A program made the position numbers and the translations under genes. Shown here in pieces: positions 1-14,587 of a stretch of DNA of 14,587 nucleotides. Below the pieces are notes generated by a model. That model was not told where the DNA came from and did no database searches. It worked only from the letters and a program-made list of their open reading frames with translations. Every line of letters begins with the position of its first letter. Positions within the stretch are counted from its first letter, which is position 1. The DNA is from Octopus sinensis (taxonomy: Eukaryota), in assembly GCF_006345805.1 (NCBI RefSeq), contig NW_021825702.1, positions 1 through 14,587 of the forward strand. Direction: 5' to 3'.

Positions 1-132
1 TAACATTACTTTCCTTCTGGTGGCTTCCGGCAAGAGATGCTGGAAAATGGGATCGAAAACAGACAACAATTAATGGATAAACAAACACTCTCCCCTACTT
101 CTTCCCCCTCGTGTGTGACCCTTCTGTCCGAA

Positions 133-336
133 GTCAGTCGCCATGATAGATCGTTAGCCACTACGCACATTTTTTCTCTCCTTGTTTCCCTCCTTGTTTT
201 TTCTGTCTCCCCTTCTGTAGAAGAGCGCAGGCTCGAAACGTAAAAGACTTTTTCTATTCCTGAGCGTTATACTAATACATCTGTTTGTATTGTACACCAC
301 CAGTCTTCGTTTTTTGTATTTTTCGTAAACTCTCCC
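133..336 (+). mobile_element. Penelope-like (PLE)-derived non-autonomous repeat, copy 1, with hammerhead-like motif, ending at (TA)n
   Basis: Aligns by eye with the reverse complement of 714-915 (cgccatgatagatcgttagc...gctcgaaa.gtaaaagactttttctatt...ttcgtaaact.tccc). Contains CTGTAGA-A-GAGC-gcag-GCTC-GAAA-C-GTA. Ends at (TA)n 337-356. PLE assignment is inferred from the motif. Confidence 0.65.
211..247 (+). ncRNA. Degenerate minimal type-I hammerhead ribozyme-like motif
   Basis: cctt-CTGTAGA-A-GAGC(gcag)GCTC-GAAA-C-GTA-aaaga: core-like box, 4-bp stem II, GAAA, NUH triplet GUA, imperfect stem I. The core has U where CUGANGA has A. Confidence 0.5.
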
Positions 337-383
337 TATATATATATATATATATACATCTAAATGGATCCGAGTTCTTTCAC

Positions 384-605
384 AGGCCATACGCTCATTA
401 GGCCGGTTTCTGTGACGTATGTATTTTTTCTCTAGACGGGACGCTGGTCGCCACAGGATTACTCACTTTTTACCAGCTGAGTGGACTGGACCAACGTGAA
501 ATGAAGTGTTTTGATCAGGAACACAATGTATCACCCACTCCAGGAACCGAAACCACAATCTCACGATTATGAGTGCAACACCCTAACCACCAAGTCACAC
601 ACGTA
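384..605 (-). mobile_element. tRNA-derived SINE, family B (diverged)
   Basis: Minus strand: A-box-like tgacttggtgg, B-box-like gtttcggttcc, CORE-like tgtgttcctgatcaaaacacttc. Shares agtccactcagctgg and the gaaaccgg tail with 10898-11126. Confidence 0.8.
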
Positions 606-675
606 CGCACACACACGTACACACGCGTACACACGTACACACACACATACACACCACACACACACACACACACAC

Positions 676-712
<37 letters not shown>
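596..712. repeat. (CA)n/(TA)n compound microsatellite
   Basis: Directly visible. Confidence 0.95.
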
Positions 713-713
<1 letters not shown>

Positions 714-714
<1 letters not shown>

Positions 715-915
715 GGGAAAGTTTACGAAAATAAGCAAAAGACGAAGGCAGGTGGAGTACAAACAAACAAATGTATTAGTATAGCCATCAGGAATAGAAA
801 TAGAAAAAGTCTTTTACATTTCGAGCCTTCGCTCTTCGACAGAAAGATACACAGAAAAAAACAAGTAGAGAAAAAAATGCGTGTAGGAGCTAACGATCTA
901 TCATGGCGTCCTGAC
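714..915 (-). mobile_element. PLE-derived repeat, copy 2 (inverted relative to 133-336)
   Basis: Reverse-complement homology to 133-336. The terminus abuts (TA)n 687-712. Confidence 0.65.
810..847 (-). ncRNA. Degenerate minimal type-I hammerhead ribozyme-like motif
   Basis: Minus strand: tcttt-CTGTCGA-A-GAGC(gaag)GCTC-GAAA-T-GTA-aaaga. Stem I tcttt/aaaga and stem II GAGC/GCTC both pair perfectly. Confidence 0.55.
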
Positions 916-1080
916 GCACACATACATGCATAAAGTACATTTATATGCATATATTTATGAATATATACGTATTCATAAGCAGCTTCGGTGTTAGAGGAGC
1001 CATGAAGAACTCTGTATCTTCTGGCTCTCACGCCCTTTTCTGCAGATAAACCACTGTCGCTATCATTATCAAACATTTAC

Positions 1081-1256
1081 CCTCAATCAACGCAGTATTT
1101 GATCCGTTCTGTTTTACGGCTAACATTAGATTAAATGGACGTTGTTCTTTTTGGGGATAACCACAAACTTCCAACGAGAGTGGAGCTAGGCACAATTTCG
1201 CCCGAGTCTTAGTTTCTTCCTCTACTTTTGTCAGAGGAAGCAACACCAATTTTTTC
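1081..1256 (-). CDS. Weak candidate exon (KKLVLLPLTKVEEETKTRAKLCLAPLSLEVCGYPQKEQRPFNLMLAVKQNGSNTALIE), product unknown
   Basis: Non-repetitive and open within ORF 1028-1285(-). Donor GAGG|gtaaat; acceptor ttag| lacks a pyrimidine tract. No recognised homology. Confidence 0.15.
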
Positions 1257-1311
1257 CTAATTTGACATTGTAGATTTCTATCCATTCATACACCAAAATA
1301 ACAAAGTTATA

Positions 1312-1686
1312 AAAGTTAAGTTAAGTTAATTTTGGGGCTTAAAAAGCAAAATCACGGCCATGTAGGGGGACATAGGGTTATGTACAGGGAGGGTGTTCAT
1401 GTAAAGAGTTCAGGCCATTTCTGGTCAAGAGAGACTTTGAACCGAGCGGTCGTCGGCATCTTCACTATCTCGTCCAGCAGCTTATTCCACGGAACCGCAA
1501 CCCGGACGGAGAAAGCCCCTCTCCTTCGATTGAGATGAAATCGTCGCAGATAGAGCTTTTCGGAGTGACCCCGCAGCCGACGCTCTGGAGCAGGAGTGAA
1601 GAACAGCTCTTTCGAGAGGTTACACATTCCGCTTATGATGTTGTGAGCGAGAATGAGATCTCCACGGCGTCGTCGTTTTTTTAGAG
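1312..1686 (-). mobile_element. 5'-truncated CR1-clade LINE: ORF2 C-terminus, short 3' UTR and (AACTT)n tail
   Basis: Minus-strand frame 1684-1397 reads LKKRRRRGDLILAHNIISGMCNLSKELFF...LRGHSEKL...FSVRVAVPWNKL...FKVSLDQKW, with the typical CR1 RRxRGDL, RGHxxKL, FSxRV..WN and FK..LD motifs. The tandem tail appears as aagttaagttaagtt at 1313-1327. Confidence 0.92.
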
Positions 1687-1762
1687 CGTCTTCAGCCTTT
1701 CTTCATAAGACAAAAGTTACACTGCATGCTAAAAAGACACTGCTTTTTTATATGGACATTAC

Positions 1763-1838
1763 CTGAATTCAGAAATTTCACCTGGATGATTCCTTTCATA
1801 TAAACAAGGAGTTGTACAATAGATCTGGGGTGTGCGAT
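1763..1838 (-). CDS. Weak candidate exon (RTPQIYCTTPCLYERNHPGEISEF)
   Basis: Minus strand: branch-like ctaac, then tattcccttaag| acceptor and CAG|gtaatg donor. Open frame is phase-compatible with 1081-1256. Confidence 0.2.
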
Positions 1839-2014
1839 CTTAAGGGAATAGATATGTTAGATACCTTAAATTAAAAATTCCCCTCAGTACTCTTAGGGCT
1901 ATACAGAGATGAGGAGTTAGCTATCCCTATGGTGGACAAATGTAATCTTGCTAGTTAAGAAGCAGCTGTAAGCTAATGAAAGTGATTGTGTAATTCGTTC
2001 TTTAACAGTCATTA

Positions 2015-2368
2015 ATATATGTATATATGTATGTATATGTACATACATACAAATATATATATACATAAAATATTATATATATATATATATATATATAAAC
2101 GTATATACTTCTTATTCTACCAAATATATACGTTTTTATTATTATTTTGCAATTTACTTAATCATTGGTATTTTATTGTTATTTTAATTTTAATATTTCT
2201 ATTATATGTAATTTTCTAAATGGTGTAATTTAATTGTTCATTTTAAATTGATAAAAGGTGTTTTTTTCTAATTTATATATATATATATATTATATTTTGA
2301 AATTCGATTTAGTTTCTAAATTGAATTTTTCCCTGTAAGTTAGGAATAATATTCCCTCAAATAATTAT

Positions 2369-2421
<53 letters not shown>

Positions 2422-2491
2422 GGTGCCCAGCATGGCCACAGCTCATAGGCTGGAACTGGAATCAATCAATCAATCATATATATATATATAT

Positions 2492-2525
<34 letters not shown>

Positions 2526-2622
2526 AAGAAGTAAATATATGGCACAACGAAGTACCGATATTCTTTACTGGAAAGCAATACTCTAGTATTGCATTACTAA
2601 TTTATATTGCATTACTAATTTT

Positions 2623-2653
<31 letters not shown>

Positions 2654-2673
2654 ATATATATATATATATATAT
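2015..2673. repeat. AT-rich low-complexity region with several (TA)n, (ATCA)n and (GA)n tracts and an 18-bp tandem duplication (2587-2621)
   Basis: Directly visible. Confidence 0.9.
2419..2476 (+). mobile_element. Isolated 3' tail fragment of a family A-like SINE between (TA)n tracts
   Basis: ggcggtgcccagcatggccacag matches ggcggtgctccagcatg near 11736. Ends in (ATCA)n. Confidence 0.65.
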
Positions 2674-2783
2674 AGCGCAAATATTCCCCTCAATACACTT
2701 TGACCTATATAGAGATGACTGGTTAGCTATCACTTTGGATATTCACTAATACAGTAGGGAAGGACATTATCATACATTTTCAG

Positions 2784-2852
2784 ATCTTTGATAGAGCAGC
2801 CCTTATCTACAACGTCTTCCGAGAAGTGATCGGATTCAAACGCTTAATTAGG
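2784..2852 (+). CDS. Weak candidate exon (IFDRAALIYNVFREVIGFKRLIR)
   Basis: ttttcag| acceptor, 23 open codons, weak AGG|gtacat donor. Opposite strand to the other candidates. Confidence 0.15.
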
Positions 2853-2898
2853 GTACATTTCAAATCAGGGCCCTTCACAGAAATATAGTTAATATATA

Positions 2899-3050
2899 GG
2901 TGCAAGCGTGGCTGTGTGGTAAGAAGCTTGCTTCCCAACCACTCACTGCGTCTCACTGCGTGGCACTTTGGGCGATTGTCTCCTACTATGGTTTCGGGCT
3001 AATCAAAGCCTTGTGAGCGGATTTGGTAGACGGAAACTGACAGAAGCCTG

Positions 3051-3053
<3 letters not shown>
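2899..3053 (+). mobile_element. tRNA-derived SINE family A, 5' half
   Basis: gtggctgtgtggtaag...gccttgtgagcggatttggtagacggaaactga, homologous to 11336-11497. The B-box region is deleted or rearranged. Confidence 0.88.
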
Positions 3054-3096
<43 letters not shown>

Positions 3097-3125
3097 GATA
3101 TAATATATATATATATATATTATAT
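3054..3125. repeat. (TA)n microsatellite
   Basis: Directly visible. Confidence 0.95.
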
Positions 3126-3129
3126 GTAA

Positions 3130-3258
3130 GACCCCAGGACTTATTCTTTACAGTATAGTATTTATTCTATCGGCCTCTTTTGCTGAACCGCTAAGTTACG
3201 CAAACACACAAATACCGGTTGTCAAGCGATGGTGGGAGGACCACCACAGACACACAAA
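3130..3258 (-). mobile_element. SINE family A, 3' half in inverted orientation, tail missing
   Basis: Reverse complement matches about 11590-11720 (catcgcttgacaaccg...cgtaacttagcggttc...aagaataagtcctggggtc). Confidence 0.85.
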
Positions 3259-3326
3259 TACATACATACATACACACATACATACATACATGCATACATA
3301 CATACATACATACATACATACATACA

Positions 3327-3356
<30 letters not shown>
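3259..3356. repeat. (CATA)n microsatellite
   Basis: Directly visible. Confidence 0.95.
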
Positions 3357-3358
<2 letters not shown>

Positions 3359-3401
3359 ACAAAGTAAACTTGCAAGGTTACCGCACGAGTGAAACTATAT
3401 A

Positions 3402-3764
3402 GGAAAGAGGATTTGAAAATGCAGAGGTCTTTTAATTATTTTAAGTTCATCAAAAATCATAATTGTAAAGAAGCATACATATAGAAAGAATCATATTTAA
3501 GTATTTATAGAGAATTTATTTTACTACCTATCTTGAACAATTTCACGTAAACTGTTTAAACAAAAAGCCCCTCTTAACATTTTCTTATCATTGTCAAAGA
3601 CTGTATAACTGCATTTTAATACAATTATGATAATCACTTTTTAACACAACAAAGCTTATACAAAGCTTTACATTTTACTTTTGAAAATCTTTTATCAAAA
3701 AAGTGAAACCGGTCAAGTCAATAAACATCTTTAAAAGGCCTCAGCATTTTCAAATCCTCTTTCC
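3402..3764 (+). mobile_element. AT-rich element with 34-bp terminal inverted repeats flanked by TATATA; contains a decayed hammerhead-like motif (PLE-derived or MITE)
   Basis: 3402-3435 ggaaagaggatttgaaaatgcagaggtcttttaa versus the reverse complement of 3731-3764: 32/34 identical. TATATA lies outside both arms. GAAACCGGTC at 3705-3714. Confidence 0.75.
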
Positions 3765-3787
3765 TATATATATATATATATATATAT

Positions 3788-3868
3788 ACACCTGCCCAAG
3801 GTGCCACGCAGCGGGACTGAACCCGGAACCATGTGGTTGGCAAGCTCCCCCCTCCCATAGCCACTCCT
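3788..3868 (-). mobile_element. SINE family A head fragment
   Basis: Reverse complement of aggagtggct...ccacatggttccgggttcagtccc...gcgtggcaccttgggca. Confidence 0.85.
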
Positions 3869-3918
3869 CACCAGTCATAGCTATGTGCAGCTATTCAACA
3901 TACACAGCTTTAAGGTCG

Positions 3919-4145
3919 AGCCAAAACAAGGGACCTCTATGTGGTCGTTCAATCTGTTAGAAATAACTGCCAAATCTTCTCAGACAGCATTCAAATATAT
4001 TGAAACAAAGAAGGGCACATTGCATAACGTAATGTCGGGTCTTATAGTATTCCTCAAAATGAGACCAAATGGCTACGGCACAGTTTAAACAGCTTTGAAC
4101 ATCAGCGTCTCAATCAAGAGTGGCCAGAAGTTAAATAACAGCAAC
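3919..4145 (+). mobile_element. Unclassified interspersed repeat, family D (diverged)
   Basis: ctctatgtggtcgttcaatctgttagaaataactgccaaatct is homologous to the reverse complements of about 11806-11860 and 13010-13045. Ends in taaataacagcaac. Confidence 0.6.
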
Positions 4146-4342
4146 TGTGGAGGCGTAATGGCCCAGTGGTTAGGGCAGCAGACTCGCGGTCGTAAGAACG
4201 CGGTTTCGATTCCTAGACCGGGCATTGTGAGTGTTTATTGAGCAAAAACGCCTAAGCTCCACGAGGCTCTGGCGGGGGTGGATGGTGAATCCCGCTGTAC
4301 TCTTCCACCACAACTTTCTCTCACTCTTTCTTCCTACTTCTG
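4146..4342 (+). mobile_element. tRNA-derived SINE with family B-related head and distinct body
   Basis: A box TGGCCCAGTGG 4159-4169, B box GTTTCGATTCC 4203-4213, then CORE-like ttgagcaaaaac. Confidence 0.8.
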
Positions 4343-4610
4343 CCACAAAGCAGAGGAACCATGACGTGGTAAACTTTCAGACCCTAGTCTAGATTGTGAA
4401 TCCTCTCTACCCCAGGATGGTTCAGCTCTCCACCCGTTAAAAACCACTGTTTACAGAATGAGGATAACAACGTAGCTTTCGCGCCCGTGCAACCACCAGT
4501 CTATCGCGTGTGGTGGGTGGATCTTCAAGTTGCCACACGCATTCTTAGTAGCTTAGAGGAGGCTCGAATTAGAGATTATTCTTTGTGGCTAATGGCGTGA
4601 GTCCTGATTG

Positions 4611-4635
4611 GAAGAAGAAGAAAAAGACAACAGCA

Positions 4636-4678
<43 letters not shown>

Positions 4679-4865
4679 TAACAACGGCAACAGTGGCAGT
4701 AGCAGCAGTAGCAGCAGCAGCAGCAGGAGGCTGAGGTACAAACCAATGTAGAAGCTTTGTATGGTCGCCAAAACTTTTAAAGTATTGAATCTCATTCAAA
4801 TCACAACTAAAATAAAGAAAGAAAAAAAGAAAGAAAGAAAGAAAGAAAGGAGGAAAGAATGAAAG
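4611..4865. repeat. (GAA)n, (CTA)n, (GCA)n and (GAAA)n microsatellites
   Basis: Directly visible. Confidence 0.9.
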
Positions 4866-4877
4866 ACAGAACAGACA

Positions 4878-4975
4878 TGTTGGCTTGATCACGACTAGAA
4901 TGTTTTGTATAGCAAGGTCTGCTCGACTTGAGCTGACCTGGGTTTAAACAACAAGACCAACAAGAACAAGAACAG
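4878..4975 (+). mobile_element. Family D terminal fragment ending in CAA-rich tail
   Basis: aggtctgctcgacttgagctgacctgggtttaaacaac resembles the reverse complement of 12858-12895. Confidence 0.6.
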
Positions 4976-5149
4976 CAACGACATTCCATGGACGAAACTA
5001 AATTGAGAAACTGATCAACAGGGATTCGAACTACGTTTCTAGTTATTCACCTAAATACACACCACCATCGTCACTCCCACCAGCCTAACCTCCCCCAACT
5101 ACGAAAATGACATATGTATATGAAAACCTGTCAAAATAAACTCCCCACA

Positions 5150-5650
5150 CGTATGTATGTATGTATGTATGTGTATGTATGTATGTATGTATGTATGTAT
5201 GTATGTATGTATGCATGCATGCATGCATGCATGCATGTATGTACGTATGTCCGTATGTGTATATATATACATATATATAATATATATACACAAACATATA
5301 TATACTTATATGTATGTATACATACATATACATATATATATGTATATGTATATATTCATACATACATACATAAATACATACACACACACACACACACATA
5401 TATATATATGACAGACATATGAATATTGAGATCGATTTAATCGACTCGTCCACAACCACCCACCACACCACCACCACCATCATCATCACCACCACCATCA
5501 TCATCACCACCACCACCATCATCATCACCACCACTGCCACCACCATCACCATCGCCATCAATACAGCTTTCAACAACACCATCATTATCATCGTCATCAC
5601 CACCACCACCATCATCATCATCATCGTCACCACCACCACCATTACCACCT
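5150..5650. repeat. Compound microsatellites: (GTAT)n, (GCAT)n, (TA)n, (CA)n, then (CAC/CAT)n
   Basis: Directly visible; source of the spurious low-complexity ORFs. Confidence 0.95.
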
Positions 5651-5779
5651 CTATCCCATCTACATCAATTGATTTGTGCTTAGTCATGAGACATCCATAT
5701 GAAAAAACCGTCAATAGCAACAACAACACAATAACATAAGCCTTCCCCAAGACAGATTTTGAAGGCGTGCGGGTTTCAC

Positions 5780-5872
5780 CTTGGTGTGACCTCTTCCTTG
5801 ATCAAGTGGCGCAAGCAAAGACTCGTGAAGACGTTAAAAGTACAGATACCAAGATAGCGCTCATGTCGTTTC
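5780..5872 (-). CDS. Weak candidate exon (KRHERYLGICTFNVFTSLCLRHLIKEEVTP), product unknown
   Basis: Unique, more GC-balanced island between microsatellites. ttccgtacag| acceptor, AAG|gtgaaa donor, 93 nt symmetric phase 2-2. A plus-strand frame is also open. Confidence 0.25.
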
Positions 5873-5994
5873 CTGTACGGAACAGTTTTTTTAGTGTTTC
5901 ATGGCGGAATATTGATGTAATTGTCAGAACAAGACGAAAGTTTCGTGTCCGCAGACGAGATTGCGCGCGCGCATCAGTGTATATTTGCTTGAGT

Positions 5995-6008
5995 ATGTGT
6001 GAGTGTGT

Positions 6009-6046
<38 letters not shown>

Positions 6047-6588
6047 ATGTGTGTGCGTGTGTGCGGGTGTGTGTATGTGTGTGTGTTTGTACGTGTGTGT
6101 GTTTGTATGTGATTCTGTATGTGAGTGCATGATTGTGTATGTGTGCGTTTTTGCATGTGTGTCTGCATGATTGTATATATAATGTGTGTGTGTGAGTGAA
6201 TGATTGCGTATGTGTGTGTTTGTATGTGTGTGTACATGATTGTGTATGTGCTTGTCGGTATGCTTGTGTATTCATTTTTGTTTGTATATTTTGTGTGTGT
6301 GCGTGCGTATGTGTGCGTGTAGAGAGGAGAGTGTATTATTGTATGCATACGTAAGTGTGTGTGCCTAGAGGTGGTTGTGTGTATGTGTGCGTGTGATTGT
6401 ATGGCTGTTTGTCTTTGACTGTATGGTTGGTGCGTGTGTATATGTATGTGTGTGGGACTGCGATTTGTGTATATGCATTATGTACTCGTGACTTAGTGTG
6501 TGTGTGTGTGCGTATGCGTGCATTTGTGTGTGTGTATGTGTGTGTTTGTGTGTGTGTGTGTGTATGTGTGTACGTGCGTGTATGTGTG
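5995..6588. repeat. Degenerate (TG)n array
   Basis: Directly visible. Confidence 0.95.
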
Positions 6589-6691
6589 ATGAAGGTGACA
6601 GATGAAAAATGGACGTTGAAGCAAGTCAGGTAAGAATGACCAATTCTTATGAAATATTACAAGACTTTGGTGAGCGATTCCCCCTTCAGAA

Positions 6692-6882
6692 TACACACAC
6701 ACACGCACACACACATACACACACACACATACACACACACTCTCTCTCTCTCTCTCTCTCTCACCCTCTCCCTCTTACTGCCTCAGTCATTCACTTTCCA
6801 TCTCTCTGAAAGCACTACTGTCCTCAATCACATTGCTTTACTTTCTCATCGCATACTAATTTACACACACCACACACACACA

Positions 6883-6913
<31 letters not shown>

Positions 6914-7015
6914 CCTCACACACACACACACAAACACACACACATACCAACACACCACACACACACACACACACACACACACAACCACACACACACCTAT
7001 ATATATATATATGTA
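6692..7015. repeat. (CA)n, (CT)n and (TA)n microsatellites
   Basis: Directly visible. Confidence 0.95.
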
Positions 7016-7021
7016 TTCATA

Positions 7022-7211
7022 TAGAAACGTTAGCACAGCCGGACGAAATGCGTAGCCGTATTTCATCTGTCGTTACGTTCCGAGTTCAAATTCCGCCGAG
7101 GTCGACTTAGGCACTGGAGTCGGTGTAATCGGCTTTATCCCTTTGTCTGTCCTTGTTTGTCCTCTCTGTGTTTAGCCCCTTGTGGGCAATTAAGAAATGG
7201 AAATAAAGAAA
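7022..7211 (+). mobile_element. SINE family C monomer with internal deletion and tail type 1
   Basis: gaaacgttagc...gagttcaaattccgccgaggtcgact, then jumps to cactggagtcgg...tttgtctgtccttgtttgt...ccccttgtgggcaattaagaaat; compare 13901-14130. Confidence 0.88.
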
Positions 7212-7279
7212 TTCATAAAATACTCGCATACATAAGTGCGCGCGCGCTTGTGTGTATGTGTGTGTGTGTGTGTGTGTAA

Positions 7280-7545
7280 GAGCGTTTGGCGTAGTGGTTA
7301 GGGTGTTGCACTCACGATCCCGAAACCGTGGTTTCAATTCCTGAACCAGGGCGGTACGTTATTCTCTTGAGCAAAATATTTCATCTCACCTTGCCTGCGA
7401 TCACTTCAACATCTGTTGTGTCGTGTGCCGTGCACTCGTTCGGGCAACATCAATTTGATGGAGGGAGGGAGCTAATGTGAACCATATGCTCCTCATCACC
7501 AATCACTTCTGCTGATTTTTCAGCAAGAAATTGCAGAACCGTCTT
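7280..7545 (+). mobile_element. tRNA-derived SINE with family B head and a different body
   Basis: A box TGGCGTAGTGG 7287-7297, B box GTTTCAATTCC 7331-7341, CORE-like cttgagcaaaatatttcatctcac. The 3' boundary is approximate. Confidence 0.75.
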
Positions 7546-7570
7546 CATCAGACTACGAGAGAGTATCAGC

Positions 7571-7682
<112 letters not shown>

Positions 7683-7899
7683 TCAACTTCTTCAAGTACC
7701 ACTTGAAGAGGAAAGTGAGAGTAGAGAGGCAAGTTTTGTCTAGCGAATGTTTTAAAAAAAGATGGGTGAATGTAGCTAGGATGACACGTATGAATGACGA
7801 AGCCACCTTGAGCATAATTCTATGAACCCAGAAATTGAAAACAGAGGGTTACCCACTTGCAAACAAATGTGGTAACATATAACAATATTTCCATCCAAC

Positions 7900-7954
7900 C
7901 TTCTGCTCTTTAGGTTTTCGGTTAGATCGTAATCAGAGGAAGAACACCAGATTT
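7900..7954 (-). CDS. Weak candidate exon (IWCSSSDYDLTENLKSR)
   Basis: cacttcatgtacag| acceptor, weak AAG|gttgga donor. Phase-compatible with 5780-5872. Confidence 0.12.
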
Positions 7955-8385
7955 CTGTACATGAAGTGATTGTTAACAGCTTATAATCATTTATAGGGGC
8001 TACTAAGGGTCAGGAAATTGGTCAGTATTGACCTCCGCGGGTCTATGCTGTTATCCATATATTCGATTATATTAATATAATTTGACTGAATTTTTATTAT
8101 TCATTTTCAATTTCGTTTAAGCACTTTCATTAATTTCTTTAAAACATTTCTTATTAATTAAAAAGCGTTGATGATGCAAACGAACTGAGGAATTATTGAT
8201 TTTAAATCAATAATGTTTTTTTGAATAATATGAATTTAAGAATTTTATTTAGAAATTTACGTAATGGAGATCGATAATTGATCAACGATTCCATGAAAGG
8301 GAGAATGATATGTTTGCTACCGCCTTGTGTAATCAAATTAGGAGTCAGTTAAACCAGCCAGGTTCAATTTGCATAACTGCATAGA

Positions 8386-8969
8386 TTCTTTTCTACTCTA
8401 GGCACAAGGCTCGATTTTTGGGGGCGGGGGGGGGAGTCGATTAGATCGATCCCAGTACGCAACTGGTACTTAATTTATCGACCTCGAAAGGATGAAAGGC
8501 AAAAGTGGACCTCGGCGGAATTTGAACTCAGAACGTAAAGACAGACGAAATACCTATTTCTTTACTACCCACAAGGGGCTAAACACAGAGAAGACAAACA
8601 AGGACAGACAAACGGATTAAGTCGATTATATCGACCCCAGTGCGTAACTGGTACTTATTTAATCGACCCCGAAAGGATGAAAGGCAAAGTCGACCTGGCT
8701 GGAATTTGAACTCAGAACATAGCGGCAGACGAAATACCTATTTCTTTACTACCCACAAGGGGCTAAACACAGAGAGGACAAACAAGGACAGACAAACGGA
8801 TTAAGTCGATTATATCGACCCCAGTGCGTAACTGGTACTTATTTAATCGACCCCGAAAGGATGAAAGGCAAAGTCGACCTCGGCGGAATTTGAACTCAGA
8901 ATGTAACGGCAGACGAAATACCGCTAAGCATTTTACCCGGTGCGCTTATGATTCTGCCAGCTCGCCGCT
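8386..8969 (-). mobile_element. SINE family C trimer (one head, three B-box/core units, 184-bp period)
   Basis: gaaatacc recurs at 8547, 8731 and 8915. Each unit has gagttcaaattcc and gcctttcatcctttc..ggtcgat..taagtaccag. One head gcggcgagctggcagaatc, tail ccttgtgcctagagtagaaaaga. Confidence 0.92.
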
Positions 8970-8989
8970 TTGATTAATAACAATAATAA

Positions 8990-9205
8990 TCTTTTCTACT
9001 ATAGGCATGAAGCATGAAATTTAGCGGAAGGGAACAAGTCGATTACATCGACCTCAGTGTTTCACTGGTACTTGATTTATTGACCCTGAAAGAATCAAAG
9101 GTAAAGTCGACCTCAGCAGAATTTGATCTCAGAGCGTATAAGACAGACAAAATGCCGCTCGGCATTTTGCCCGGCGTGCCGACAATTCTGCGAGTTCGCC
9201 GCCTT
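8990..9205 (-). mobile_element. SINE family C monomer (older), tail type 2
   Basis: Homologous head, core and ...cctatagtagaaaagattatt tail. Confidence 0.88.
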
Positions 9206-9372
9206 TCTAAAGATTATAATGGAAAATATTACAGCTGTGACCAGTCATAATTTTTTTTCTTTCCTTTGCCTCGTCAAGGACGGTACAGGTATGACATCGA
9301 TTATCTGGAACCTTCGGATTATTGATTTTTCCGGACCGGGGGTGGGGTGGGGGTCACCTCTAAATTTATCAA

Positions 9373-9600
9373 ATATTGGTTTCAAATTTTCGCACAAGGT
9401 TAGCAAGTTGAGTGGAGGGGTGGAGGGGGTTAAGCCGATTACATCAACCCCAATGCGTAATTGCTACTTATTTTATCGACCCCGAAAGAGATGTAAAGCA
9501 AATTCAACTTCGGCGGAATTTGAACTCAGAACGTAAGGACGGACGAAATGCCGCTAAGTTACTTTGCCCGGTGCACTACGGTTCTGTCAGCTCACCATCT
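9373..9600 (-). mobile_element. SINE family C monomer (diverged), tail type 3
   Basis: Homologous head and core; tail ccttgtgcgaaaatttgaaaccaatatt. Confidence 0.85.
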
Positions 9601-9626
9601 TAATAACAACAACAATAATAATAATA

Positions 9627-10164
9627 TGGCTCTCATGGCTGCTGATCTTAACTGATTGGAAGTGATATCATGTATACATTGTTTTGTCTTGGTATAAAAG
9701 ATGGGCTACAGCAAATATTCTGCTCAATACCACAGATTTGCTTGTCAGTTGTTTGACCTTAACCAGTTGAGCATGTCCCTTAGTGGCTGACAATATGTGC
9801 ATTTCTGATCATGAGCAGAAGTAGTGGGGGAGCATCATAGCCATGTGTTGAGAGGGATTCTTTGTAGTTTGAATAATTCACCTCTGGAAGCATGGGAGCT
9901 TCGTTCAACATCCTTAAACAACCCTTATTCAGGGACTTTTGGAGTGGGATGGGTTACTCGACCAGAAGAAAATTCTAACTAGGCCTCACCTGCAAAGTCA
10001 TGTGCTGTTAATCTTGATATGAGATCACCGTGTTGCGCACATATGTTTGCGATGCATGTGGCTGGTGTACCCTTATCAGACAGGTAGTTACGATGGGTAT
10101 ACTGGGCTTCTTATATTGTACCCCAGTGTCACTTTGATGGTATGCACTGCTCTCTCTCTCTCTC
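9627..10164 (+). mobile_element. Putative 3' end of a non-LTR retroelement within an (AAT)n tract (possibly Dong/R4-like)
   Basis: Higher-GC block with sharp borders, (AAC/AAT)n on the left and (AAT)n on the right, 3' hairpins, no long ORF. The clade is inference only. Confidence 0.45.
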
Positions 10165-10219
<55 letters not shown>

Positions 10220-10222
10220 TAA
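10165..10222. repeat. (AAT)n microsatellite
   Basis: Directly visible. Confidence 0.97.
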
Positions 10223-10276
10223 TAGAACAAATATGAAAATTACTTGAATAAATGAAATACAGGTATCTGTATGTTA

Positions 10277-10814
10277 TCTTTTATTTTTCACCTGTTCCAA
10301 TCATCAGACTGCGGTCATGCTGGGGCACCGCCTTGAAGAATTTTTAGTCGCATGAATTGACCCCCAATACTTTTTTTAACACTGGTACTTCTTCTATCGG
10401 TCCCTCTTGGCCGAACCGCTAAATTAATAGAAAAGTAAACAAACAAACACTGGCTCTTAAGCAGTGGTGGGATACACACATACACATACACGACGGTTTT
10501 TTTTTTCAGTTTCCGTCTACCAAATCCACTCAGAAGGCTTTAGTCGGCCCGGGGCTATAGAACAGTGGCTCCCAACCTGTGGTCCGCAAAGGTAGTACTG
10601 GGGATCCGAGAACATGTTAAGCTGACAGACTTTTCAATATTCTGGGGTCCGTGGAGAAGGGGTCCTTAGTAGTGAAATAAAAGGGGTCCTTGGTAGTGAA
10701 AAGGATAGGAACAGGTTCTACAACAGTAGAAGACACTTGCCCAAGGTACCACGCAGTGGGACCGAACCCGGAACCATGTAGTTGGGAAGCAAACTTCCAA
10801 CAACACAGCCACAC
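10277..10814 (-). mobile_element. Near full-length SINE family A (diverged), interrupted by a MITE
   Basis: Colinear with the reverse complement of 11336-11788 apart from the insertion after ggctatag. Confidence 0.9.
10563..10717. mobile_element. hAT (Charlie/MER5-like) MITE nested in SINE A
   Basis: Left TIR cagtggctcccaacct; degenerate right TIR aggataggaacaggtt (9/16); possible decayed 8-bp TSD ctatagaa/ctacaaca. Splits the SINE sequence ggctatag|tagaagacac. Confidence 0.75.
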
Positions 10815-10888
10815 TTGCTGTTATCTGTCTGTCTGTCGTTTTTTTTTCTGTTCAATAAATGTCCACCAAGCTAGCCAATGAGGCAGGC
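10815..10888. repeat. Left arm of an inverted duplication (partner 11853-11947)
   Basis: 43-bp exact reverse-complement match (10846-10888 vs 11853-11895) plus an 18-bp exact match at the outer ends. Confidence 0.95.
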
Positions 10889-10897
10889 CAATTAAGT

Positions 10898-11126
10898 AAT
10901 AAATGCACCCTTTTAAAGCCTAGCCAGGCTCATGGGCCCGGTTTCCCGGTTTCAATGGCGTATATGTTCCCCAGCTGGATGGGACGCCTGTTACTCACAG
11001 GTTTACTCATCTTTGCCAGCTGAGTGGACTGCTCAAGAACACAACGCGTCGCTCGGTCCAGGAATCGAAATCGCAATCTTACGATCATGATGCTGACACC
11101 CTAACCACTAAGCCACGCGTCTCCAC
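10898..11126 (-). mobile_element. tRNA-derived SINE family B
   Basis: Minus strand: A box tggcttagtgg, B box atttcgattcc, tgtgttcttgagca, tail gaaaccgggaaaccgggcccatgagcctggctaggctttaaaagggtgcattt. Confidence 0.88.
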
Positions 11127-11335
11127 AGTATAAATAATACTAGTTCAGTAATACCGTTTTGAGTAAAATACTCGTAAACTATTCTGTTGGCTGCAGGAAT
11201 TTGAAGTTCCTGCTCGTAAATTAATCCGGATTATACGAGATTCCGAATTATCAATGTTGGGAAATATGGTGCTGTACCTGTAATATCTAACGTATTTTCT
11301 ATTATTTCTATTTCTTTTTCTTAAACAATGGTATA

Positions 11336-11503
11336 GGCGTAGGAGTGGCTGTGTGGTAAGTAGCTTGCTTACGAACCACATGGTTCCGGGTTCAGTCCCA
11401 CTGCGTGGCACCTTGGGTAAGTGTCTTCTACTATAGCCTCGGGCTGACCAAGCCTTGTGAGTGGATTTGGTAGACGGAAACTGAAAGAAGCCCGTCGTAT
11501 ATA

Positions 11504-11569
<66 letters not shown>

Positions 11570-11788
11570 GTGTGTGTGTGTGCGTGTTTGTCTGTGTTTG
11601 TCCCCCCAACATCGCTTGACAACCGATGCTGGTGTGTTTACGTCCCCGTAACTTAGCGGTTCGGCAAAAAGAAGCCGATAAAATAAGTACTAGGCTTACA
11701 AAGAATAAGTCTTGGGGTCGATTTGCTCGACTAAAGGCGGTGCTCCAGCATGATCACGGTCACATGACTGAAACAAGTAAAAGAGTAA
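11336..11788 (+). mobile_element. Full-length tRNA-derived SINE family A with internal (TA)n(TG)n microsatellite
   Basis: A box TGGCTGTGTGG 11346-11356, B box GGTTCAGTCCC 11389-11399, CORE-like ccttgggtaagtgtctt, internal microsatellite 11498-11582, tail gtaaaagagtaa. Confidence 0.93.
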
Positions 11789-11805
11789 TTGGCATGTTGT
11801 GAGCT

Positions 11806-11868
11806 GAAGATGTTTTAGTTGCTATTTCTACACGGTCAGCGACCACGTAAAAGCCTGCCTCATTGGCT
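11806..11868 (-). mobile_element. Family D fragment
   Basis: tgctatttctacacggtcagcgaccacgtaaaagcc resembles the reverse complement of about 3935-3977. Confidence 0.55.
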
Positions 11869-11947
11869 AGCTTGGTGGACATTTATTGAACAGAAGAGAC
11901 AAAAAAAAAAAAAACAGACAGACAGACAAACAGACAGATAACAGCAA
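11853..11947. repeat. Right arm of the inverted duplication
   Basis: See 10815-10888. Confidence 0.95.
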
Positions 11948-12122
11948 TAGCAGCCGTAGCAGTAGTAGCAGTAGACGTTCAGTGACAGTTGCACTCTGGG
12001 AAGACATGGTTGGTTGGGTTGTCATGCTTAACTGGACAGAAAGACACGTCCTGATCTAATGTCGCTTACAACACTATCAAACTTTGTCGTCCATTGCACA
12101 TTAATAGTATTGCCATTGTTAC

Positions 12123-12855
12123 GTGTTGTTGTTGTTTTAGTTGTTGTTGTTGTTATTAGTGGTGGTGGTAGTTTGTGGTGGTGATGGTGTTGGTGGCTCG
12201 TAGTGGTGGTGGTGGTGTTAGGGTGATGTGAATATAGCGATGGGTACGTGGCGGGGGTTGGGCTGGTGGTGGTGGTGGTTTATGATGGCGATTAGAAGGT
12301 GGTGGTCACGGTTGTGGTTGTGCTGATGTAAATATGATAGATGGCGTTGTGGTGATCCATCCGGAGATGGTTTTGGTGATGGTTGTGGTTGCAGTAAATG
12401 AGGTGGTGATGAGGAGGCTGTCATGTGGATGTTTCGGTTGTAGTCACTGAGGCAGTTGAAGCTGTCCTTAATATAGATGTAAATGTGGTTGTGGTGGTGG
12501 TGGTAGTGGCAGTGGTGTGGAGGAGGTGGTAGTGGTGGTGGTGGTTTTGTTAGTTTAGGTGGTAGTAGTGGTGTTGGTGATAGTGGTGGTGGTGTTAGTG
12601 TTGGTAATGGTGTTGGTGGTGGTAGTGGTGGTGATAGTGGCAATGGTGTGGAGGAGGTGGTAGTGGTGGTGGTGGTTTTGTTAGTGTAGGTGGTAGTAGT
12701 GGTGTTGGTGCTGTTGGTGATAGTGGTGGCAGTAGTGGTGGTGGTGTTAGTGTTGGTAGTGATGGTGGTGGTGGTAGTGGTGGTGGTAGTAGGGGTATGG
12801 GTTATGGTGGTGGTGTTAGTGGTGGTAGTGTTGATGTTGATAGTGGTGGTAATGG
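12123..12855. repeat. (GTT/GGT/AGT)n low-complexity tract containing a ~131-bp tandem duplication (about 12504-12765)
   Basis: tggtgtggaggaggtggtagtggtggtggtggttttgttagt occurs twice, 131 bp apart. Confidence 0.9.
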
Positions 12856-12857
12856 TA

Positions 12858-13072
12858 CTTGTTCAGTCCCAGGTCAACCCTAATCGAGCAATTCTAGAAA
12901 TATAGACACTCCAAGCACGACCATCTCGTCTTTTTCCCAATGTGTAACTAAGCTATGATTACATTATCCAACTTGTCTCTTTCTATCACGACAGTTTATG
13001 AGTTGACATAGATTTCGCTGCTATTATTAGCACATAGAATGACCCTCCCCCCTACAGACTCCTTCATTAGTT
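12858..13072 (-). mobile_element. Family D repeat (diverged)
   Basis: Carries both family D end motifs (cccaggtcaaccctaatcgagca; agatttcgctgctatt). Confidence 0.6.
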
Positions 13073-13084
13073 GGTGATTATTGT

Positions 13085-13432
13085 AGAGGTGGTAGTAGTG
13101 TGGTAGTGGTTGTGATGGTTGATGTCGTAGTGGTTAGGAATTATTTTTCATGTGTTCATATGATGATTGGCACTGTGGTGGTGGTGGTGGTGGTGGTGAT
13201 GATGATGATGATGATGGTGGTAGTGGTGGTGGTGATAGAGGTGGTGGTGATGATGATGATGGTGGTGGTGGTGGTGGTGGTGATGGTGGTGGTGGTGGTG
13301 GTGATGATGATGGTGGTGATGGTGGTGGTGGGGATGATGATGATGGCGATGGTAATGGTGGTGGTGGTGGTGATGGCGGTGATGATGGTGGTTGTGTCGG
13401 TAGCAGTTGTAGTAGTGTTGGTGGTGGTAGCG

Positions 13433-13474
<42 letters not shown>

Positions 13475-13520
13475 ATGGTGGCGGTGGTGGTAGTGGGTGA
13501 TAGTGGTAGGGGTGGTGGCG
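13085..13520. repeat. (GGT/GAT/AGT)n trinucleotide array
   Basis: Directly visible. Confidence 0.95.
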
Positions 13521-13900
13521 AGGAGTGATTTTGTGATTGCTTTGCACTCCAGTGCACAACGATTGTTGCAACAACACCTTTGTGTCTTTAATTACGGCAA
13601 TAAAACGGTTGCGGTGGGAGCAGGGCGGGGGGTGGGGCGTGGGGGCAGACGGTGAGAAGGGGTGGTGCTGGTGGTAGTATTTATAGTAACAGTAGCCACT
13701 ACTACTACTACTACTACTAGAAACGGTTTATTAGAATATGTAAATAATAATAGCCGTAATAATAATAATGATAATAATAATAATAATAATAAAATAATGG
13801 CAGTAATGATTTATTTTATTAGCCACAGGGGCATCAGATGAGGGTCACATTACAATAATAATAATATCATCATCATTATCATCTTCATCATTATTATGAA

Positions 13901-14298
13901 GGCGGCGAGCTGGCAGAACCGTTAGCAAGCCGGGCGAAATGCTTAGCGGCATTTCGTCTGTCTTTATGTTCTGAGTTCAAATTCCGCCGAGGTCGACTTT
14001 GCCTTTCATCCTTTCGAGGTCGATAAATTAAGTACCAGTTACGCACAGGGGTCGATATAATCGACTTAATCCGTTTGTCTGTCTTTGTTTGTGCCCTCTG
14101 TGTTTAGCCCCTTGTGGGTAGTAAAGAAATTTCGTCTGTCTTTATGTTCAGAGTTCAAATTCTGCCGAGGTCGACTTTGCCTTTCATCCCTTTCGGGGTC
14201 GATAAATTAAGTACCAGTTGCGTACTGAGATCGATCTAATCGACTGGCCCCCTCACCTCCTACCAAATTTCAGGCCTTGTACCTATAGTAGAAAGGAT
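13901..14298 (+). mobile_element. SINE family C dimer
   Basis: Head ggcggcgagctggcagaaccgttagc, B box 13973-13985, second unit restarting at ttcgtctgtc 14131 (first at 13953), tail cctatagtagaaaggattatt. ATT/CAT repeats on both sides. Confidence 0.93.
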
Positions 14299-14560
14299 TA
14301 TTATCATTATTATTATTGTGATGATGATGATGATGATGATGAAGTAGAGGAGGAAGTGAAGGAGGGGAAGAAGAACTATATATATATATGTGCGTGTGTG
14401 TGTGTGTGTGTGTTGTGTGTGTGTGTAGCTAGATACATACTTACATATATATAACAGTCGTGTTTAAAATGATGCCGGATGATGATGATGATGATGCTGA
14501 AAGTGGTGATGATGATGATGACGACGACGACCGTGATGATGATGGTAATTGATAATATCA
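14299..14560. repeat. (ATT)n, (GAT)n, (TA)n and (TG)n microsatellites
   Basis: Directly visible. Confidence 0.9.
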
Positions 14561-14587
14561 TTAAGCCATCTAATTGCCAATCAATCA

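Follow-up and report, generated by a model that had tools for sequence, protein, structure and literature searches.

Two hammerhead-like motifs lie in the first thousand bases of the window, the whole 14,587-nt stretch of Octopus sinensis DNA that was analysed (contig NW_021825702.1, positions 1 to 14,587, forward strand), and each of them sits within a truncated copy of the 3' end of a Penelope-like element (PLE). The features are as follows.

89..335, plus strand: copy A, a 5'-truncated 3' end (pLTR) of a PLE, subfamily N7 = A, H17 = A (similarity to other copies)
211..246, plus strand: minimal type I hammerhead motif of copy A, predicted cut between 242 and 243 (pattern and subfamily consensus); stem I 211-214, C3 215, U6 218, extra A 222, stem II 223-234, GAAA 235-238, H17 242, stem I' 243-246
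336..356, no strand: (TA)n tract, the insertion target, at copy A's 3' end (sequence; same 3' end in other copies)
678..712, no strand: (TA)n tract, the insertion target, at copy B's 3' end (sequence)
712..908, minus strand: copy B, a separate 3' end from this PLE lineage, again 5'-truncated, subfamily N7 = C, H17 = A (consensus match)
810..847, minus strand: minimal type I hammerhead motif of copy B, predicted cut between 815 and 814 (pattern, fold and consensus); C3 842, U6 839, H17 815

A degenerate pattern in which positions 6 and 7 were left free matched the window twice without any mismatch, at 215-241 (plus strand) and 816-842 (minus strand), and found no match in 200 shuffled sequences, so that the two motifs proposed in the initial annotation are real; their stem II is indeed identical, as had been claimed. 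An Rfam scan of the window, uninformative for minimal motifs, gave 97 matches with none from hammerhead families at E ≤ 5, and the folds of the two motifs were not unusually stable compared with shuffled sequences (z of -0.14 and -0.44), as is expected of a minimal motif. The elements of the minimal type I fold were present, namely stem I (5 bp in copy B), stem II with G10.1-C11.1, GAAA, a palindromic 15.2-16.2, the UH triplet and an additional base after A9. The CUGANGA core (A6) of PLE minimal type I hammerheads was absent, position 6 being U in 94.8% of exact matches and in all eight subfamily consensuses. Judged from its sequence, the motif thus resembles a PLE minimal hammerhead in place and shape, yet lacks the core by which members of that class are recognised.

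Copy A was 94% identical to a longer copy (L002) over 89-347 and 93% identical to its own subfamily consensus, and among the best 40 of 3043 candidates, 39 other copies were 90-95% identical to it. Copy B was 94% identical to its own subfamily consensus over 712-905, each copy was 82-84% identical to the consensus of the other's subfamily, and the two regions aligned at 79%. By these comparisons, A and B are independent insertions which face each other on opposite strands and which, for that reason, cannot form a dimer in cis. With respect to its consensus, copy A has two changes, one in stem I (giving a C.A mismatch) and one in the loop, and copy B likewise two, one in the loop and one at 15.2 (CpG decay). 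Of the variation initially described between the two copies, the A/C difference at N7 stands as a difference between subfamilies, whereas loop, stem I and 15.2 turn out, against the subfamily consensus, to be private decay; three of the four kinds of difference are thus to be read as decay after insertion and not as covariation. The best reading of both copies is that they are dead products of PLE amplification. An 80-codon frame which runs through copy A was considered as a PLE open reading frame (ORF) and rejected, the parent ORF ending at least several hundred bases upstream of the motif, and on the same ground an explanation of U6 by coding constraint was dismissed. No variant of base 218 was found at ≥5% in contigs of four runs from four organism codes, a weak comparison that needs 80% likeness. 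Between the two copies, window positions 365-590 hold a different interspersed repeat, common to 13-18 fetched loci, which we take to be SINE-like. Further along the window, a 184-nt unit is present in 2.6 tandem copies with 93% matches (8435-8922) and as an inverted copy about 5 kb away (13896-14130); this unit is a common repeat, shared with about 50 fetched loci.

The initial annotation had suggested that the family amplified with a variant core, to be abandoned if the family consensus proved to be CTGANGA. Genome-wide, an exact 24-letter pattern found T at position 6 in 20,714 copies, A in 413 and C or G in 720, so that T makes up 94.8% of 21,847 exact matches, with no match in reversed-pattern controls; the CTGANGA consensus fails this count and amplification with the variant core is borne out. 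The C/G copies mostly carried C (92/100 among the matches listed, 720 in all), as expected for transitions. As a safeguard against circularity, copies were also gathered with a profile of the 3' flank only, which yielded 301 sequence-unique copies, and among the 194 of these not chosen by core pattern, which still needed alignment to the motif with at most 8 mismatches, position 6 was T in 191, G in 2, C in 1 and A in none. Fifteen rows from 30 fetched A6 loci clustered within U6 subfamilies as back-mutants, and others of the fetched A6 copies formed older families, one of them with a GTTT/AAAC stem I and a different loop. It is hardly credible, then, that copies A and B merely decayed from a canonical CUGANGA family: each does carry two private changes in its 36-nt motif and canonical-core families do occur in the same genome, but T is about 50 times commoner than A, A is rarer than C/G, the long-ORF parents carry U6 and the A6 rows just mentioned nest among U6 copies. 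Simple decay is refuted by the position 6 counts. Among the patterns counted, no other short-stem minimal hammerhead-like motif of this genome is likely to be as abundant as the U6 motif.

U6 is the derived state, since A6 is retained both in sister families and in relatives found in other organisms. Where stem II has a different sequence, the motifs of this genome were A6 in 74/100 cases among the matches listed (625 in all; control 42), and of the 26 T6 rows among these, 15 belonged to another family read in a false register and 5 or more to known repeats, as mutated members. In metagenome loci that code for relatives, a descriptor with position 6 left open picked up 11 motifs, spread over 10 of 80 loci; all were A6, and some had near-identical stems beside proteins 51-57% identical. 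In the alignment of Cervera and de la Peña (2014; PMC4209133), as far as its available part goes, all 44 rows examined were A6, in a search that itself required A6. A tree built with position 6 masked gave a ladder of seven U6 subfamilies with bootstrap values of 96-100; the base of the tree, outside the supported ladder, holds the oldest subfamily as a mixture of A and U copies, and one single U6 copy (L309) groups with A6 families. What looked like a second CUGUUGA family (15/100 rows) was rejected as a false register, a canonical CTGATGA lying about 35 nt upstream. The repeat family L293-L305, L310 and L311 (e.g., G000:C2:30562443), in which CTGATGA stands about 35 nt upstream of a CUGUUGA-like string with GAAACGT, resembles a long or split-core hammerhead, and one of its copies adjoins a distant reverse transcriptase (RT; 25% identity). 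Also seen were lone U6 copies in which the extra base is G, the loop differs, the triplet is GUC or the stem is GGGC/GCCC (L137:3014, L139, L309); these are possible further old U6 subfamilies, and the same genome holds many older canonical-core PLE hammerhead families with GGAC/GTCC and GGAT/ATCC stems (L264-L292).

Walking upstream from the motif reached RT, linker and GIY-YIG sequence, and in a protein search the best 150 of 16,313 candidates were 83-90% identical, the query itself aside. Of 16 loci, chosen for long frames, 15 contained frames free of stops, 618-975 aa long and running in the same direction as the element. The 963-aa ORF of one of them (L128) matched RVT_1 above the cut-off (E = 1.6e-7) and GIY-YIG below it (E = 0.003, residues 868-907), with YIG and CxxC..H..H visible, and the linker between the two contains CSRPRCRTC, that is C-x4-C-x2-C. 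This ORF had 1034 protein relatives, the best 50-57% identical, many with PF00078 and some with PF01541, the named matches being 'uncharacterized'. A single ORF with RT plus a C-terminal GIY-YIG is what characterises EN+ PLEs, and variable 5' truncation, the 5' ends lying anywhere between -1332 and +104 or beyond, with a fixed 3' end (+137; positions are numbered with C3 = 0, the predicted cut lying between +27 and +28) fits the partial-tandem structure of PLEs. Six of the 16 long-ORF loci had the structure pLTR-ORF-pLTR with matching 5' and 3' repeats, 90-99% identical, and carried the motif in both pLTRs, 11 of the 12 motifs being CUGU and one CUGC; the likely start codon follows the 5' motif at a distance of about 750 nt. 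The search for RT- and GIY-YIG-coding parents with the same terminus, as initially proposed, was thus successful, and the objection that stem conservation or covariation and any link to PLE coding sequence might be missing fails with it. The CX2-5CxxC motif between RT and EN and the (TA)n at the 3' ends correspond to Neptune hallmarks, a CX2-5CxxC linker motif and (TA)n/microsatellite targeting, in the portion of PMC8557442 available. As judged by linker and target, the parent is a PLE lineage with Neptune features, which was recently active and whose young pLTR-ORF-pLTR copies carry the CUGU core.

Flank-based clustering defined eight multi-copy subfamilies of 1.5-11.5% divergence. Along the ladder, 49 substitutions were counted at 36 sites of 107 flank columns, while the 34 motif positions other than N7 and H17 underwent no change against 15.6 expected (Poisson P = 1.7e-7, Fisher P = 1e-5), in a set where 107/301 copies were chosen by core pattern. 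By contrast, N7 and H17 accounted for 8 changes at two sites, above the flank rate (P = 5e-6); N7 takes all four bases and H17 is A or U, never G. Hammerhead catalysis leaves both positions free. By this pattern, the master lineage of the U6 PLE is under constraint on the motif. Across the eight subfamilies, loop II was as invariant as the core and no stem covariation was seen within the U6 lineage, and the constraint could therefore be one of protein or DNA recognition. Stem changes, judged by eye, were present between the U6 lineage and its A6 sister families, which alter both sides of a stem and keep the core (stem I GTTT/AAAC; stem II of GGAC/GTCC and GGGC/GCCC type).

The U6 monomer is predicted to form the pairs U4.G16.2, G5-C15.2 and U6-A15.1, with U7-A14 in addition when N7 = U, which extend stem II toward stem I. 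In folding predictions across subfamilies, the probability of G5-C15.2 was 0.35-0.98 with U6 vs. 0.00-0.23 with A6, and in the youngest subfamily the zipped form was predicted at -10.2 kcal/mol vs. -7.8 for the open form, i.e., 2.4 lower. The A6C substitution loses hydrogen bonds, as described in the accessible part of PMC3088659; A6U is predicted to have a second effect, zipping, beyond that loss.

The 5' ends of genomic copies were tallied by hand, 100 each among the matches listed (454, 141, 700 and 120 in all), many of them being repeat starts of one locus. Among the matches listed (141 in all), 90 pLTR/5'UTR-junction regions, less 2 duplicates and 2 unmappable ones, left 86 mapped loci, of which one (L198) starts at the cut site and the others from -1332 to +352. 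Among the matches listed for short copies that abut (TA)n, starts at +27..+29 were found in 13/44 young-subfamily loci, cut-site starts in 9/38 loci of a downstream window, and starts at +28/+29 in 20/91 duplicate-reduced loci of older subfamilies; these samples, in which the excess at +28/+29 is slight, overlap one another. This excess was significant against a flat background (p = 0.001, 0.0003 and 0.046) but not against microhomology-matched controls (p = 0.08-0.27). In the older subfamilies, 13/91 starts fell at the A-run +21/+22 (p = 0.15 vs. +28/+29), and the young subfamilies had 10 vs. 5 starts at two TA sites (p = 0.15). Most templates thus seem to pass the motif site uncut or re-joined, and the cut fraction, if any, would be minor. 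The strongest peak of the older subfamilies, at +14 (20/91 among the matches listed, the other TA site having 7), is at a TA in loop II, and microhomology may explain it. Four copies that start at the predicted cut (G000:C2:131812449, C5:60782196, C3:14225637 and C2:30787613) have their first bases briefly duplicated, as if RT had re-primed at the 5' end of the RNA.

Rolling-circle-like tandem arrays of short units were another product of this element. At 20 of 24 loci, remapped in detail, there is a junction that connects a 5' UTR point between +190 and +469 (hot spots around +398 and +423) with an earlier one, 7-563 nt upstream of the motif; wherever the end is in view, the junction-bearing loci end at or near +137. 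Eleven loci (L195, L205, L212, L231, L146, L159, L196, L218, L198, L183 and L166) show their own junction 2-5 times over, in units 258-606 nt long and 94-99.8% identical to one another. In seven arrays (L159, L196, L218, L183, L231, L195 and L205) the first piece starts downstream of +137, so that at insertion the junction must have been copied two or more times; since unequal crossover cannot create this from a single junction, it was rejected as the sole source of these seven. Back-splicing was likewise rejected as a source of junctions, no GT donor following any of the 20, and no consistent ligation scars were found at the cut site in array units. All 20 short-unit junctions were private and, for this reason, the arrays do not prove ribozyme-made circles. 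They point to short circular RNA, or to repeated end-to-end jumps on one RNA, that held one intact motif. Metazoan non-LTR retrozymes (bioRxiv 10.64898/2026.07.22.740005, in the part available; PMC7229834 also bears on metazoan retrozymes) are similar head-to-tail short hammerhead units related to PLE pLTRs, but form dispersed tandem families with a shared unit, whereas here each array has a private junction and the fixed PLE 3' end, and the window copies are single. The arrays look like by-products of single events rather than established retrozyme families, and they fit the proposal of the same preprint that animal retrozymes derive from PLE pLTRs.

On balance, we lean towards the motif being an attenuated ribozyme, dependent on a dimer or on protein, in the pLTR of an amplifying PLE lineage in which A6U is fixed. 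A single copy would be unable to close stem III, an ACGU palindrome without a loop, and U6 would pair with A15.1 alongside the pairs G5-C15.2 and U4.G16.2, so that the core would be zipped up as an extended hairpin; most transcripts would consequently stay whole. Primed in (TA)n, reverse transcription would begin at the pLTR end, some 110 nt downstream of the cut site, and the RT would read on through the motif; now and then an RNA would be cut and re-joined, which would yield templates of unit length or circular ones. The 13/44 young-subfamily 5' ends at +27..+29 (among the matches listed) count for this reading, and slow or assisted cutting has precedents in the available parts of two sources: a natural A6C hammerhead cuts slowly (kobs <0.1/min; PMC3088659), and the PAc PLE hammerhead cuts only with protein, uncut RNA being the main template in vitro (PMC11167929). 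Against it, by analogy, full pairwise mutagenesis of a type III hammerhead gave low activity and no rescue for CUGA-turn mutants except the C:G swap, in the data seen of PMC9901934, and the private junctions of the arrays do not seem to fit cut-and-ligated circles amplified from genomic masters.

The same mutagenesis (PMC9901934) favours a catalytically dead motif, inactivated by A6U, whose zipped hairpin is kept as an RNA handle for the PLE protein, a reading that we consider a genuine but lesser possibility; the handle may serve RNP assembly or the placing of RT initiation, and lost cutting may have aided amplification. Hammerhead mutants indeed leave PAc insertion in vitro unimpaired (PMC11167929) and Naiads proliferate without canonical hammerheads (PMC8557442), each according to the part of the source available; in the octopus copies, loop II is invariant across the eight subfamilies, templates read through the motif site, and the pile-up at the cut site is not significant once microhomology is controlled. 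A dead fold accounts less easily for C3, G8, G12, GAAA and U16.1 being fixed while exactly N7 and H17 turn over (P = 5e-6), which looks like the tuning of a rate, or for the slight 5'-end excess at +28/+29 in each of the overlapping samples, although a zipped hairpin would leave N7 and H17 free in a dead fold too. That the constraint acts on DNA, as a promoter element or endonuclease recognition site in the pLTR, with the hammerhead shape merely inherited, is improbable: compensatory stem change is absent within the U6 lineage, and many 5' ends and starts of short units fall 50-170 nt upstream of the motif, as they might close to a promoter, but sister families change both stem sides while the core is kept, and the free positions match ribozyme rules. 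To return to the attenuated ribozyme, a rather doubtful extension of it would make A6U a built-in off switch opened by dimerisation or protein, with N7 and H17 tuning the rate from one subfamily to the next, and with rare cutting and joining giving circular RNAs that are copied by rolling circle into the arrays, as retrozymes at birth.

Protein assistance is known from PAc, a Poseidon element of Anolis (Frangieh et al., 2024). As far as the available text of PMC11167929 goes, PAc is alike in that RT starts internally, about 110 nt downstream of the hammerhead, at AT-rich targets and with uncut RNA as the main template; it differs by its canonical core, which overlaps the start codon, whereas in the octopus element about 750 nt separate the motif from the likely start codon downstream of it, and the linker is of Neptune type. 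The minimal hammerheads of PLE pLTRs, in what was available of Cervera and de la Peña (2014; PMC4209133), share with the present motif a place in both pLTRs, a short stem I, G10.1-C11.1, the extra nucleotide between 9 and 10.1, the palindromic 15.2-16.2 without loop 3, a U-rich 5' and an AU-rich 3' flank, and occurrence mostly as single truncated copies. They differ by their CUGANGAH consensus, with U3-A8 as the reported core variant, where U6 is found here, by a stem II of 7-8 bp instead of 4 bp, and in that one sequence dominates here with >20,000 exact copies. Phage Bcep176 likewise has a hammerhead with a natural substitution at position 6 (A6C; Perreault et al., 2011; PMC3088659, in part), but that is one phage sequence, of low measured activity, whereas here U6 is fixed across an amplifying retroelement lineage, as seen from sequence alone. 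Small hammerheads that cleave as dimers (Lunse, Weinberg and Breaker, RNA Biol 14:1499; cited in PMC6765202) are PLE-associated, by the title of that paper, and the set may include position 6 variants. No published description of an A6U PLE hammerhead was found, in a search that did not cover Lunse et al. (2017) or all supplements; PMC13282606 makes no mention of a ribozyme or hammerhead.

Cutting by PLE hammerheads is weak in vitro and was dispensable in the one reconstituted system. The octopus family offers a natural experiment on why PLEs keep them: a lineage with a changed core base reached >20,000 copies over eight subfamilies and, after changing a base that mutagenesis finds important, froze all bases of the motif but the two free positions. 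It may be that A6U is tolerated, or put to use, by the hammerhead core; alternatively, it may be the fold rather than the chemistry that PLEs require. This family would escape descriptor searches in which CUGANGA is obligatory. The arrays, for their part, are genomic evidence that the PLE reverse transcriptase copies RNA templates that are short and circular, or re-used end to end.
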